Assembly (NCBI GenBank): GCA_964016885.1
Contig: OZ024750.1
Span: 46,562,001-46,626,000 of the forward strand
Length of the DNA: 64,000 nucleotides
Source: Eledone cirrhosa
Lineage: Eukaryota
Reading direction: 5' to 3'
The notes under the pieces are model-generated. The model saw only the letters and a program-made list of their open reading frames with translations, ran no database searches and had not been told where the DNA came from. A program made the position numbers and the translations under genes. This document shows, piece by piece, positions 6,097-63,055 of the stretch (position 1 is the stretch's first letter; every line of letters starts with the position of its first letter).

Positions 6097-6208
6097 GCTT
6101 TAACATATGTTTCAGTGTCTATTTTATATAGTCTACATATGCTGACTACAATATATATTGTTCAATCATATGCGATACTTAATTATTTTTCGCACTTCTT
6201 CAGAAAGC
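6097..6208 (-). ncRNA. Type I hammerhead ribozyme motif with about 83-nt stem II domain
   Basis: GCUUU CUGAAGA AGUG...CACU GAAA CAUAUG UU AAAGC; 5-bp stem I and palindromic stem III; the region 6033-6110 is mirrored at 5915-5992 across (TA)n. Confidence 0.7.
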
Positions 6209-6287
6209 TTAAAGTTGTTTGTGGTAATGTCTTTCTAGCATGTCGTACAATTCAGGAATGAGATGTTCAATTTAAAAATATAATTTC

Positions 6288-6471
6288 ATTGTTTCTACTT
6301 TTGGCACAAAGCCAGCAATTATTCCAGTGTATTACTGCTACCTTATTTTATCGACCCCGTAAGGCTGTAAAGCAAAGTTAATCTCGGCGGGATTTGAACT
6401 CAGACTATAAATGGCCGTAACTCTTTGCTGCAAAGCATGGCGTCAGACCCTCTACCGATACTGCCAATCCA
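6288..6471 (-). mobile_element. SINE family 1
   Basis: Near-identical to 4168-4354. Confidence 0.9.
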
Positions 6472-6877
6472 TTTGTACGTAACCTTTCTCCGTAGAACAT
6501 TAAGAATAAGGACATTTATATTTAGGTAACTTACACATCATCCCCACACATCTAGGTATTTATGAGAGAAAACATATTTTCCACTGTGGTATATACATTT
6601 ATACCCAAGTTTATGTTAACTAACTTTGTTATCGATTTTAAACCCTTTATACTAAAGTGAAAATGTTTACCTAATTAAACATACATATTCACAAATCTTC
6701 TCTATTACGCGTATACCACCCTCGCACATGCTTCACACAGAGACACATACATAATGTAACACACGCACACACGTACAAATGCCCCCCCCCATGTATATAT
6801 ATATGTATATATATATATATATATATATATATATATATATATATATATATATATATATATATATATATATATATATA

Positions 6878-7022
6878 TAGTAATAATAATAAATTTGAAG
6901 ACTAAAATCCAAAGAGGGCTCGATAAGGATAAATATATATCAAATATATAAAAACCATAGAGGAAATATTTATTTAAATAACAGATTAAAGTTTAAGCAA
7001 AGAATCGCTGCTTTCACCCTTT
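6878..7022. repeat. Dispersed (TA)n-associated repeat family
   Basis: tagtaataataataaatttgaagactaaaatccaaagag... recurs, fully or partly, near 12465, 43072, 45930-46190, 49370 and 58720-58790. Confidence 0.75.
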
Positions 7023-7890
7023 GGAATTTCGTATTTCAGAAGAAATTACAATATATATCTTTATACAACTATGTCTAGGGCTAAATTGTAATTCTATTCT
7101 CTCTCTTTCCCAAGCCCCCCCTCTCTCTCTCTCTCTCTCTGTATATATACGTACAAATAACCATGCACATACTTGCATAAATACATCAATTGGAAACAGT
7201 AAAGAAAGAAGTAGAATCGCCAATACAACTCAAGTCAAATTGAATTGTCGGCTTACACCGAATGGCTTCTCGTCATTATATTTAAGGAGATACCATATTG
7301 TTAGATAGAAGTCGAAATTTATTACTATAACATTAGAATACATGTAAAAGCTCTCCTCAGATGTTCTCTTCACCAAGAAATAAATAGAATGTTACCATTA
7401 AATCAATGTTATTTTGTGTCAAATATCACGTGCATTAAACTTTATATTCGGGTTCACATCTTGGTTGGTTTCTCGCCGAAGAACATAGTCACATATATGA
7501 CTGAGCTGTAGTTTCATATAAAATAAAATAATATGTAATAACTAATGTTGTTATAAACATCAAGTGGAACCAAAGAAGACAATTTAAATGCTTATAATGC
7601 CATTAATAATCACTCTAAGAATATGGCTACAAGATAGCTTTGCGTAATGCTTACAAACCTTCAAAGACCATCCATGCCTTTTCATATCTATTTCTAAGTA
7701 CAAACTAATAAAACATGCTAAGAACGAATGTGGTGTACACATTCCATATGATATGTCGAACTTAGGGAAGTCACAAGCCCTTGACAGTGGAATTATTAAT
7801 AGCAGTGTTGTATTAACTTTATTTAATACCACGAGCAGTATCATTTCGTGTTCATTCATTCATTCGATATTAACTATTTCATTGTATAAT

Positions 7891-8077
7891 TGTTTCTATT
7901 TTAGGCACAAGGCCAGCAATTACCCAGTACATTACTGGTACTTTATTTTATCGACCACGTAAGGATGAAAGGCAAAGTTAACCTCGGCGGGATTTGAACT
8001 CAGATCATAAAGGGACGTAACTCTATGCTTCAAAGCATGGTGTCCGACTCTCTACCGATACTGCCAATCCACCGCCC
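7891..8077 (-). mobile_element. SINE family 1 with 14-bp TSD
   Basis: TSD tttcattgtataat at 7877-7890 and 8079-8092. Confidence 0.92.
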
Positions 8078-8253
8078 TTTTCATTGTATAATGTCCACAC
8101 ACTACGGTATTGATATTTCTTAGGAAATATTGTAGTACTGATAACGATGTATGAAACTTAATTATGCATTCTAAACTTCTATACAGATATTCTACTTGAA
8201 AAACGTATACTACCGACTCATTGGACGATAATATAGGTTTTTCTTAATACTGA

Positions 8254-59517: not shown

Positions 59518-59605
59518 GTGTCCGAGGAACCTGCGAGTTTAGAGTCAGGTCGATCCACTCACAGATCGCACCTCGAGCTGTTCGCCTGGGAAACAATTGT
59601 AACAC
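59518..59605 (+). ncRNA. Decayed long-stem-II hammerhead; homolog at 62369-62456 (minus)
   Basis: GUGU CcGAGGA (homolog CUaACGA) ...GAAA CAAUUG UA ACAC; each copy has a different single core mutation. Confidence 0.6.
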
Positions 59606-60312
59606 GCTAAATTGAGATCCGGTGCACCACTGATTATTCATTTTCCATTCTCTCTCTATATATATATATAGATATATGTATATATATATATATTTCCATA
59701 TATATACTTCATATTTTGTGTTAGTTTTGCAGCATTTCTCATCTGAGACGTGTGTTGAAACAGATATTGTTATACATTGGGAAGGTCATTCTGCCAATAC
59801 AATCATATGTACCTGCTGATTTTCGATTTAATTTACTAGAAACTTCCTGTTTGATAGTTAAATAAGCGGATGGTTGTTTATTTTATGACAATGATCAAAA
59901 TAGGTAAACAACCATTCTGTTGTTATGAAATTAACAACCAGAAAGATTTTAAGATATTCAAGTGAAAACCACAGGTGCGTATGTTTGTATTGACTGCACG
60001 ACCCTCCCAATATGCATATGTATATGTATATACATACAGATATATATATATACATAATATGGAAAGCGAAGAATCAGTTATGCATCGGAAGACGATTTAT
60101 AAACGTATTATAATTGTTTCGATCTGTTTGAGGATCGAAGCTGACTCTGGATTCGCAATTTCCTCAGATACTTCTACTCTCCTTCAATTCCTCTTTCTCA
60201 TACTCAAATTCATAAACATCATACTCTGCTCCGAAGGAGCATAGAGTGGTCCACTGACATACCGAATATGGACGCATCCCAGTAACCATATGACATATAT
60301 ATATATTTATAT

Positions 60313-60516
60313 GAACGAGTAGGACACCGACGGCTGAGCTCAAGCCGTTTCGACGGCTAATTCTGGACTAAATTGTTAGTCTAGAATTACCCGTCGAAAC
60401 GGCTTGAGCTCAGCCGTCGGGGCCCTACTCGTTCCTATTACCCACTCTGCTACCCTAAGTATTGAGTACTTTGGTGCGTTATGGTCCATCTGGCTCCTTA
60501 CCATATTTCCTTCGTT
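60313..60516. mobile_element. Family F hairpin element with full tail
   Basis: About 57-bp arms plus an 80-nt tail ending ...tttccttcgtta(TA)n. Confidence 0.82.
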
Positions 60517-60824
60517 ATATATATATATATATATATATATATATATATATATATATAAGTGCATTTTACCTAGAAATAACTACTGCAGGATGAGAACTAT
60601 TTCATTCGTAAGAGGTCATCAGGTATGTCCATAAAGATTCCTCATAATATCATACAAACGAAACAATAATAGTCCTGTAGAACTCATTTCTATACCAAAC
60701 ACAGATGCTTATATTCAACAGATATATTGAGTATCTTTTTTAAGTGTGGCCCCCTCGCGTATGCCTACGTGGAATCTACCTATGCACATATATATATATA
60801 TATATATATATATATATATATATA

Positions 60825-61286
60825 CAAGAGCATCGTGCTGCCAACTGTGATTTATGCGAGCAAGAGCTGGAAGAATACGGCAACAATAGAGAGAGGGCTG
60901 AACACTTTCCACCATCGGTACCTTCGAAAGATCCTTCGTGTGTCCTGGCGCGACCGAGTGCGAAACGAGGAGATCATGGGGAGAGTCGAGTCGTGGACGC
61001 TACAGAGAGTGGTCCCGGAGCGTCGGTGCCGTCTGGCTGGCTGCCATACTCTGCGTCTGCCAAATGTACGGCATTCGAAAACAGCGATGTACTGGACTCC
61101 GCCTGGCGGTAAACGGAGGCGGGGTTGCCCAAGGATCACCTGGCGACAAACGTTCCGGAAAGACCAGATGGCAGTCAAGATCACCTGGCACAGTCTCGAA
61201 CAAGTTGCCGCTGATCGTGACCGTTGGCGAGTACTTACTGTTCGATGCGCCGAACGACGCGGTAGAATTTAAGACTAAGACTAAGT
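60825..61286 (+). mobile_element. 5'-truncated RTE-clade LINE 3' end
   Basis: [61 protein letters not shown]; stop at 61272; short (ACTAAG)n tail. Confidence 0.9.
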
Positions 61287-61907
61287 ATATACATATATAG
61301 TATATATATATATATTTGTGTGTGTGTGTGTGGTGTGTGTTTGTGTGTATGGAGTTACATTGTATATATATATATACAAACTTTAATCTCTCTATATATA
61401 TGTATATATATATATATATATATATATATATATATATATATATATATAGTATATATATATATATATGTATGTATATATATATATATATATATATATATAT
61501 ATATATATATATATATATATATATATATTATATATATATATATATATATATATTATATATATATATATATATATATATACAATATCGGAGAAACCTCTTA
61601 GCGAAACTCCGGCCAAATTCCAACTCACTCAACAAGCATTAGGAAATAAGTGATTATATTCGAAATTATGTGTGTGTTCGGGGTGCTAACTAAAAGTATT
61701 GCGTGGAAAATTGGCTGTATTATTTCAAATGAGACATATCTAATATATCTCTTCCCAGACGGACGTCTGGTCTCATTATATATATATATATATTTGAATT
61801 GTCATACTTCTCATAATTATTATATTAGTAAATTAGTAATAATAATAATACTACAACAAACTATATTGAATCATCGAAATACATAAACTGCTATTTAAAT
61901 GGCGTAT

Positions 61908-62157
61908 GTCTGAATTATATAGTTAAATTGCTGAGTAGTGACGTCTGTCTAAATTATTTAAATAGTTACATTGCTGAGGAGTGAAGTCTGTCTAAATTAT
62001 TTAAATAATTAAATTGCTGTGTAGTGACGTCTGTTTGAATTATTTAAATAGTTACATTGCTGAGCAGTGATGTCTATTTGAATTATTTAAATAGTTACAT
62101 TGATGAGCAGTGACGTCTGTCTGAATTATTTAAGTTGTTACATTGTTGAGCAGTGAC
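61908..62157. repeat. 43-bp minisatellite, about 5.8 copies
   Basis: Units start at 61943, 61986, 62029, 62072 and 62115. Confidence 0.92.
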
Positions 62158-63055
62158 GATGTCTTATATGATTCGATAGAAAACCAAGACCTTAAGTGTA
62201 TATATATATATATATATATATATATATATATATATATATATATGCGGTCCAGATATAGCCGTCGAAACGGCTTGAGCTCTGCCGTCGGGGTTAAACATTT
62301 TCCTATATATATATATATATATCATATAAAACGAAAAATCAGTGATGCATCTGAACTCAATTTATTGTGTGTTACAATTGTTTCGCCGGCAGACAGCTCG
62401 AGACACGATCATTGTGTGGATCTGTCTGATTCTGCATCTGCAGGTTCGTTAGACACTCCTAATATATATATATATATATATATATATATATATATATATA
62501 TATATATATATATATATATATATATATATATATATATATATATGTATATATATATATATATATACACATCTGTGTGTGTTTGTCAGTGTCTATTTATATT
62601 TATATGTATATGTATATATATATATATATATATATGAATGTATATAAATATGCTATGTAGGGTAATAGATGTGGATCAGCCTGGCATGTTTTACCCCAGG
62701 CGTGAGTATGTGTATAGAATCTGAGCTGAATTTTATGTGAAAAAACAGTAATAACATATATGAAGTAGTCGTGTATAACCTCTATAATTATTACTTACAA
62801 TATATAGTGAATCGAAGATTGTAATAAACAGTGTATTCATCTTAATAACTGTTGTCATATATATATATATATATAGACAGATAAATAACTTACGGAAGGA
62901 AAAAAGGAACATGGTTTAGAAGTTCGTGTGTGATTTTTACTCTTCAATGCAATCAAACACACTCATATATATATATATATATATATATATATATATATAT
63001 ATATATATATATATATATATATATTATATATATATATATATATATACTCTATATA

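Follow-up and report, generated by a model that had tools for sequence, protein, structure and literature searches.

The hammerhead ribozymes described from Penelope-like retroelements (PLEs) are compact. As set out in the sections of Cervera and de la Pena 2014 (PMC4209133) that deal with their architecture, the minimal form combines a short stem I, an extra base after A9 and a palindromic stem III with a helix II of at most 7-8 base pairs (bp) and a loop 2 of at most 10 nucleotides (nt), is found in both pseudo-long terminal repeats (pseudo-LTRs) and is predicted to act as a dimer. The hammerheads of the Hydra clade, listed in File S2 of Craig et al. 2021 (PMC8557442), are type I motifs in pseudo-LTR position, with an unpaired N on either side of the base of stem II and a near-palindromic stem III, in elements with (TA)n targets and shared protein motifs; their published inserts between the two core halves measure about 11-26 nt. 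Here, we analyse a 64,000-nt stretch of the 3.0-Gb genome of Eledone cirrhosa (assembly GCA_964016885.1, contig OZ024750.1, positions 46562001-46626000), hereafter the window, and the genome around it. Hydra-clade elements in this genome carry hammerheads that share the features of both groups, including action as predicted dimers, a palindromic stem III (imperfect in family B) and, for subfamily B1, a place in both pseudo-LTRs. Unlike the published forms, however, they have inserts of 57-116 nt with conserved internal loops, and many families have not kept the G10.1-C11.1 pair of the minimal motif.

Far-apart core halves have precedents. In the PLE entries of PMC8557442, the 'deviating' hammerheads of PLE-X1_sMoe and PLE-X1_sTam have halves about 54 and 48 nt apart, the former being the longest PLE insert in File S2, and those of the Naiad 'HHR_half_core' lie 35-50 nt apart; unlike the motifs studied here, these are single, shorter cases from other clades that are noted rather than analysed in the descriptions covered, which report no conserved loop. 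The discontinuous Clec2 hammerhead likewise holds a large insertion and cuts beside a polyadenylation signal, but, as outlined in PMC6765202, the insertion spans several hundred nt and lies in a mammalian mRNA 3' untranslated region rather than at a retroelement end. In the literature covered, to which Lunse et al. 2017, Hammann et al. 2012 and Arkhipova et al. 2017 do not belong, we found no account of a 57-116-nt stem II or of the loop described below in Penelope hammerheads. Judged from sequence, the long-insert motif is real and abundant; it is a variant, under structural selection, of a ribozyme already known and belongs to a retroelement clade that is likewise known, while its function we infer.

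Long-insert hammerheads in the window and the genome

The window is AT-rich and dense in microsatellites and retroelement fragments. A relaxed scan returned 23 type I hammerhead motifs with inserts of 12-85 nt. A sequence-only reading of the window had listed nine sites with giant stem II domains, all of which are present at the positions and with the insert lengths it gave. They are listed here by family, where 'module' denotes an internal loop of the kind analysed in a later section:

6097-6208, minus strand: family A hammerhead; 83-nt stem II (6196-6114), stem I of 5 bp, CUGAAGA
14473-14584, minus strand: B1 hammerhead; 85-nt stem II (14573-14489), two loop modules
16746-16857, plus strand: second B1 hammerhead; sequence identical to 14473-14584, 85 nt
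17110-17206, minus strand: family C hammerhead; 70-nt stem II, stem III CUCGAG, without AAUAAA
23100-23210, minus strand: family E motif; core intact, stem II of 90 nt, AAUAAA at 23093
26582-26693, minus strand: B2 hammerhead; stem II of 85 nt, with mutations in the flanks of the module in this copy
59517-59606, plus strand: D1 hammerhead; U4C core CCGAGGA, 61-nt stem II, one module (AGU 59543 / GAG 59575)
60105-60171, minus strand: D3 copy; 40-nt insert, the 3' arm of stem II shortened by a deletion of about 22 nt
62369-62456, minus strand: D2 copy; 61-nt stem II, one module, core decayed to CUAACGA

The same reading had held that its claim would fall if shuffled sequence yielded such cores, with matching stem I and palindromic stem III, at the same rate. 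They are rare by chance: six cores with inserts of at least 40 nt were observed, against a mean of 0.10 and a maximum of 2 in 300 block-wise dinucleotide shuffles, although one of the six, at 43391, is a nested artefact of a hammerhead with a 21-nt insert. Taken singly, the inserts in the window have only a modest folding advantage over shuffled sequence (z from -0.8 to -2.5), with outliers in E (-4.7) and D3 (+1.1).

The motifs had also been called complete cores with a paired stem I. This description fits A, both B1 copies, B2 and C as far as completeness is concerned, but fails for D1 (U4C), the window copy of D2 (G5A), E (a stem I of 1 bp) and D3 (the deletion); CUGANGA, GAAA and the NUH site themselves are intact in A, B1, B2, C, E and D3. 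Stem I pairs over 4-5 bp in A, B, C and D, where it also covaries in D, and reaches at least 4 bp in 26 of 46 genome-wide picks, whereas it is limited to 1 bp in all 30 E copies, which are 99% alike. (For each family, the best 40 of 744-2024 candidates were taken and 30 of them fetched; family A gave 872 candidates at first look.) A palindromic stem III is seen in A, in C, in D and in 28/30 E copies, and an imperfect one in B. Across families, stem II is closed at the core and stem III is formed, while the first stem II pair is often mismatched.

Further details vary between families. The A copy has stem III CAUAUG, a GUU site (H17 at 6102), AAUAAA at 6095 and a mutated outer module. The minus-strand B1 copy has a GUA site (H17 at 14477), AAUAAA at 14467, as seen in all 30 B1 loci, and modules at AUU 14558 / UAG 14508 and AGU 14546 / UAG 14517; 25 of 29 parsed B2 copies contain a module, and those of E lie at 23184/23132 and 23173/23142. 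In A, B2, D and E, an AAUAAA is located 4-9 nt past the cut. Most copies of C have a stem II of 72 or 83 nt, through an 11-nt tandem duplication, and the family form of D3 has a 62-nt insert. C4 is found in 30/30 D1 copies and the core CCGACGA in 21/24 parsed D2 copies, and the D2 copy of the window has lost G5; the relevant passage of PMC3088659 describes U4C as a natural, weak variant of low activity that is nevertheless viable.

Such motifs are abundant. A random sample of 80 evenly placed 10-kb stretches (0.80 Mb) contained 89 type I motifs, 14 of them with inserts of at least 40 nt against 0.05 in shuffles. By extrapolation, about one intact-looking type I hammerhead per 9 kb corresponds to roughly 300,000 in the genome; PMC7229834 quotes 126,247 for the axolotl. 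Exact patterns with spacers of 56-86 nt matched 13,793 times genome-wide (control, 202) and those with spacers of 87-117 nt 23,038 times (control, 229), or 36,831 against 431 overall, a count that includes a few nested double counts and excludes family C and the U4C families. The sequence-only reading was right to see in these motifs hammerheads of Penelope type whose stem II is exceptionally large. That standard searches would miss them also proved correct: the descriptor in the supplement of PMC4209133 allows 3-7 bp in stem II and 3-10 nt in loop 2, with inserts of at most 26 nt, well short of those found here, and a search of Rfam returned nothing at the gathering score and, in an E-value run, microsatellite noise among the matches listed (150 of 456). 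Given the 14 of 89 motifs in the random sample, hammerhead censuses with short stem II limits undercount, and elements reported without a hammerhead merit a search with long spacers.

In a side observation, one family (L417) has a second CUGAAGA 45 nt upstream of a hammerhead with a 20-nt insert, with one GAAA common to both; this arrangement recurred in 4 of the first 100 matches to one pattern.

Host elements and relations between the families

The A, B, D and E motifs sit in pseudo-LTR ends of Hydra-clade PLEs, and both ends are seen for B1. In the window, B1 forms an inverted pair of 5'-truncated copies, with the C element adjoining:

14273-15761, minus strand: B1 left arm; endonuclease end, pseudo-LTR and tail, 98.6% to the intact copy L216
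15075-15794, minus strand: C-terminal GIY-YIG endonuclease frame with CxCx5C linker; GIY-YIG E-value 3e-4, below the curated cut-off
15760-16913, plus strand: B1 right arm, ending in (TA)n
16908-17565, minus strand: family C element; a tandem pair about 840 nt apart occurs in locus L042

Among 13 longer B loci, two (L216 and L218) hold a whole open reading frame (ORF; 768-784 amino acids) between two 85-nt hammerheads. The 784-residue frame, a single reverse transcriptase (RT)-endonuclease ORF, contains RWK, DKT, YRDD, CxCx5C, CxxC and CxH, and, according to section 11 and the alignment of PMC8557442, RWK, DKT, the CxCx5C linker, CxxC and CxH are diagnostic of the Hydra clade; insertion into (TA)n, which also marks this clade, was found as well. 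A Pfam scan of the whole B1 ORF matched no family. Since the B1 start codon lies 250 nt past the cut, the insert is non-coding, which rules out a coding role; this differs from the anole Poseidon element PAc, whose ORF, as described for that element in Frangieh et al. 2024 (PMC11167929), starts in a short stem II.

Upstream of the hammerhead, 21/30 B1 and 17/30 B2 loci have a related endonuclease; in 11/30 E loci this position is taken by a GIY-YIG motif, which in one case or more belongs to another type. Hydra-type endonucleases were found upstream of two A loci (L083 and L070) and three D1 loci, while the one beside D in L108 is probably a neighbour. No ORF was seen on the C element in 30 loci. 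In most E copies (L185-L210, L222), the endonuclease frame breaks near a C run, yet the family is young and abundant.

The sequence-only reading had regarded these families as unrelated and the architecture as repeatedly evolved. In a tree of 28 endonuclease fragments from this genome (142 columns, two Neptune-type outgroups), however, a single clade with support of 100/100 unites B1, B2 and E with a 79-nt family, the B and E endonucleases being 64-66% identical, so that the claim is wrong for B and E. It is doubtful for A and D: B, E and A have the two-loop architecture in common, and D has the same loop and a Hydra-type endonuclease. The tree leaves A, D, the 109-nt family G and the short 27-38-nt families unresolved, and separate origins are therefore possible for C, for a three-way-junction family (N) and perhaps for D and G. 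We infer that the two-loop form may have arisen from the one-loop form by the gain of one helical turn.

Other features of the window lie outside these families. Neptune-type endonuclease fragments are found at 19827-20423 (minus strand) and 21475-21933 (plus strand), the second followed by a hammerhead with an 18-nt insert at 22143, and a Hydra-type fragment at 49653-50255 (plus strand) precedes a hammerhead with a 31-nt insert by 1.4 kb (51682). The plus-strand frames at 60673-61272 and 44669-45097 resemble fragments of non-LTR (RTE-type) retrotransposons. Elsewhere in the genome, families C and N are at most candidate non-LTR retrozymes, with one tandem pair for C and several near 990 nt for N. 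A retrozyme-like 424-nt tandem array of 5.5 units (39378-41699, minus strand) has a hammerhead with a 14-nt insert called in four of them.

Covariation and a conserved loop in the insert

Comparison of related copies indicates that the insert is maintained as a structure. In 15 sequences of the D subfamilies, both partners vary in 7 of 25 pairs (19 cells against 6.3), and in a wider D-type set of 28 sequences with 69% column identity, they do so in 19 of 28 pairs, giving 82 cells against 32 +/- 4.9 after shuffling and 20-34 in slid controls, although both kinds of control ignore relatedness. For family N, the covariation count is inflated in the basal helix, which was fixed by the search pattern, and 3 of 31 clusters are nested or chance calls. 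With these limits, the comparisons support structural selection on the insert.

The arms share an internal loop, in which 5'-ANU on the 5' arm lies opposite AG-3' on the 3' arm; the most likely arrangement is a mismatch of A with G, followed by a base that loops out and a pair of U with A. In the 28 D-type sequences, its letters are conserved as A (26/28), U (28/28), A (26/28) and G (24/28). The loop was first noticed in B, E and A, and its definition was written down before it was tested on 60 sequences picked for diversity from 200 matches (the first 100 of two lists) on one contig. Among the 46 with a closed stem II, 35 contained the loop against 13.3 expected, compared with 4 against 2.9 in the other 14. 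Moreover, 19 of 25 sequences of 78-97 nt, chosen as similar to B, E or A and including two families new to the analysis, had two loops separated by 10-12 nt on one arm and 9-12 nt on the other (0.28 expected), a spacing of one helical turn. Insert identity between the two-loop families is near the shuffled baseline (49%). The D-type (57-63 nt) and G-type (99-116 nt) inserts have one loop each. Family N forms a three-way junction and gave 1,424 pattern matches; as a separate observation, its copies (L341-L370) show two hairpins, one of them covarying, and some lie in tandem about 990 nt apart.

The loop may conceivably adopt a sarcin-ricin-like fold. A reading of the loop as an ADAR substrate, prompted by a triplet preference, was abandoned in view of the GAG in D.

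What the long stem II may do

Copy ends limit the roles open to the insert. B1 copies end 60 nt and about 202 nt (+195 to +204) downstream of the cut, which speaks against priming of reverse transcription inside stem II. None of 13 long copies starts at the cut and five run upstream across it, so that uncleaved or rejoined RNA is copied; a set of 76 B copies is uninformative on this point, because its search pattern included 5 nt upstream of the cut. PAc is similar in that, in the experiments of PMC11167929 concerned, RT starts at two positions downstream of the hammerhead on an uncleaved template, but the tail is about 142 nt here, compared with the 30-40 bp described for other Penelope elements. 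In L216, the two 3' ends are 142 nt apart (3845-3987). The suggestion that the insert is an RT-recognition or regulatory domain is thus not supported as far as a priming site is concerned; a binding or regulatory role is the reading that we consider best.

Specifically, we tentatively favour the idea that the ANU/AG loops in the long stem II are a protein grip that folds or gates a weak, dimer-type hammerhead, a proposal drawn from sequence comparison to which we give somewhat less than an even chance. The transcript would run through a pseudo-LTR hammerhead that is built weak, with a palindromic stem III of two pairs, a stem I of 4-5 bp and a mismatched stem II base, and that is predicted to cut only as a dimer. 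Predictions put its active fold at a disadvantage, which is greater in most long forms (a cost of 0.9-8.1 kcal/mol in ten long forms against 1.3-3.0 in five short ones, with 15-nt flanks). The loops would then bind the element's own RT-endonuclease, which in a relative is predicted to be dimeric, or a host factor; cleavage would be slow or late and, in lineages such as E, might be dispensable for copying. Two like loops on one face of a helix suit a dimeric protein, hence our preference for this reading. The results on the anole element fit: in the parts of PMC11167929 that treat cleavage and insertion, the PLE hammerhead cuts only with its protein, which is predicted to dimerise, and cleavage is unneeded for insertion in vitro.

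As an observation of its own, the 3' flank could pair with the 3' arm of stem II over 5 bp in B (14467-14497, minus strand) and 8 bp in E (23093-23133, minus strand), and in B this pairing is predicted to give a competing inactive fold.

Several points weigh against a protein grip. We found no convincing loop in family N (94-97 nt), in C, including its window hammerhead, or in the 41-72-nt families. Metagenomic Hydra relatives, found by an alignment-based scan after a single-protein scan had found nothing, have a hammerhead in 49 of 77 cases, and 58 of 59 calls have inserts of 10-29 nt without a long domain, the remaining long call being a misparsed 10-nt motif; the protein is therefore not generally in need of the domain. 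In the anole element, the stem II start was dispensable, according to PMC11167929. The loop was found post hoc, with test sequences that are related and hand-picked for diversity, and conservation cannot separate a protein partner from an RNA partner.

An RNA partner is the alternative that survives best, although we regard it as unlikely. The loops would be docking sites: in a dimeric hammerhead, the long stem II would reach across to stem I or the 3' flank, either within its own unit or in the partner, and so replace the usual contact between loops 1 and 2, for which there is no terminal loop at the usual distance here. Natural hammerheads need contacts between stems I and II, as stated in the passage of PMC3088659 on this topic, the palindromic stem III of A, C, D and E points to dimers by the argument made for PLEs in PMC4209133, and the AAUAAA after the cut could be the partner. 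However, the distance from loop to core varies between 13 and 40 nt across the D, B/E and G types, a poor fit to a fixed contact, and E retains both loops without a stem I.

It is less probable still that the long stem acts during copying, by stalling RT or favouring the joining of two complementary DNAs (cDNAs), and thereby gives rise to short, hammerhead-bearing insertions. B copies do end within 140 nt upstream of the cut more often (40/76) than copies of six pooled short-stem families (36/125; Fisher p 0.001), and the next 85 nt hold the ends of only 2 of the 36 remaining B copies against 27 of 89. Yet these figures come from a single long family, inverted pairs are not independent, the families differ in their RT, and the effect may be incidental, given that a plain hairpin would stall RT without conserved loops. 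Hairpin-guided cDNA joining was rejected, with symmetric junctions in 2/13 long copies and no recurrence in 10 listed inverted pairs less than 750 nt apart.

We assign a similarly low, if anything slightly lower, probability to neutral growth as a general account, whereby slippage and duplication lengthen stem II and selection keeps only its base closed. Insert lengths form a continuum from 12 to 115 nt in the random sample, duplications, of 11 nt in C and shorter ones in G, fit growth of this kind, folding is weak in several copies, and stem I has been lost in E and falls below 4 bp in many of the picks. For C, N and the families of 41-72 nt, this explanation is quite plausible, but it leaves unexplained the fixed loop letters and one-turn spacing across unalignable inserts, as well as covariation far from the core. 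Finally, the notion that the insert is a spliceosomal intron or YAG a splice acceptor, with splicing restoring a short stem II, is highly improbable: Penelope introns do occur near the hammerhead in cases given in PMC4209133 and UAG or CAG is frequent on the 3' strand of the loop, but D1, D2 and D3 offer no GT..AG candidate. Those in other families have neither a donor nor a pyrimidine tract in common, and most of them would disrupt stem II; moreover, the strand in D reads GAG, and the facing ANU strand is conserved too.

Returning to the protein grip, it is tempting to speculate that these motifs represent a modular ribonucleoprotein ribozyme of one animal lineage, in which an ANU/AG loop, doubled at a distance of one helical turn, seats a dimeric, telomerase-like RT, cleavage occurs only once the protein is bound, and the grip has outlived the ribozyme in some young families; we consider this fuller version doubtful. 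If it holds, a Penelope RT would for the first time have a defined RNA handle. The role of hammerheads in Penelope elements is a standing question: their cleavage is poor, calls for dimers or protein, and can be dispensed with for insertion in vitro. Here, a loop pair that is conserved and can be mutated, in an element both young and intact, would allow a direct test of protein-assisted cleavage, and the same element offers a test of how a telomerase-like RT selects its RNA.

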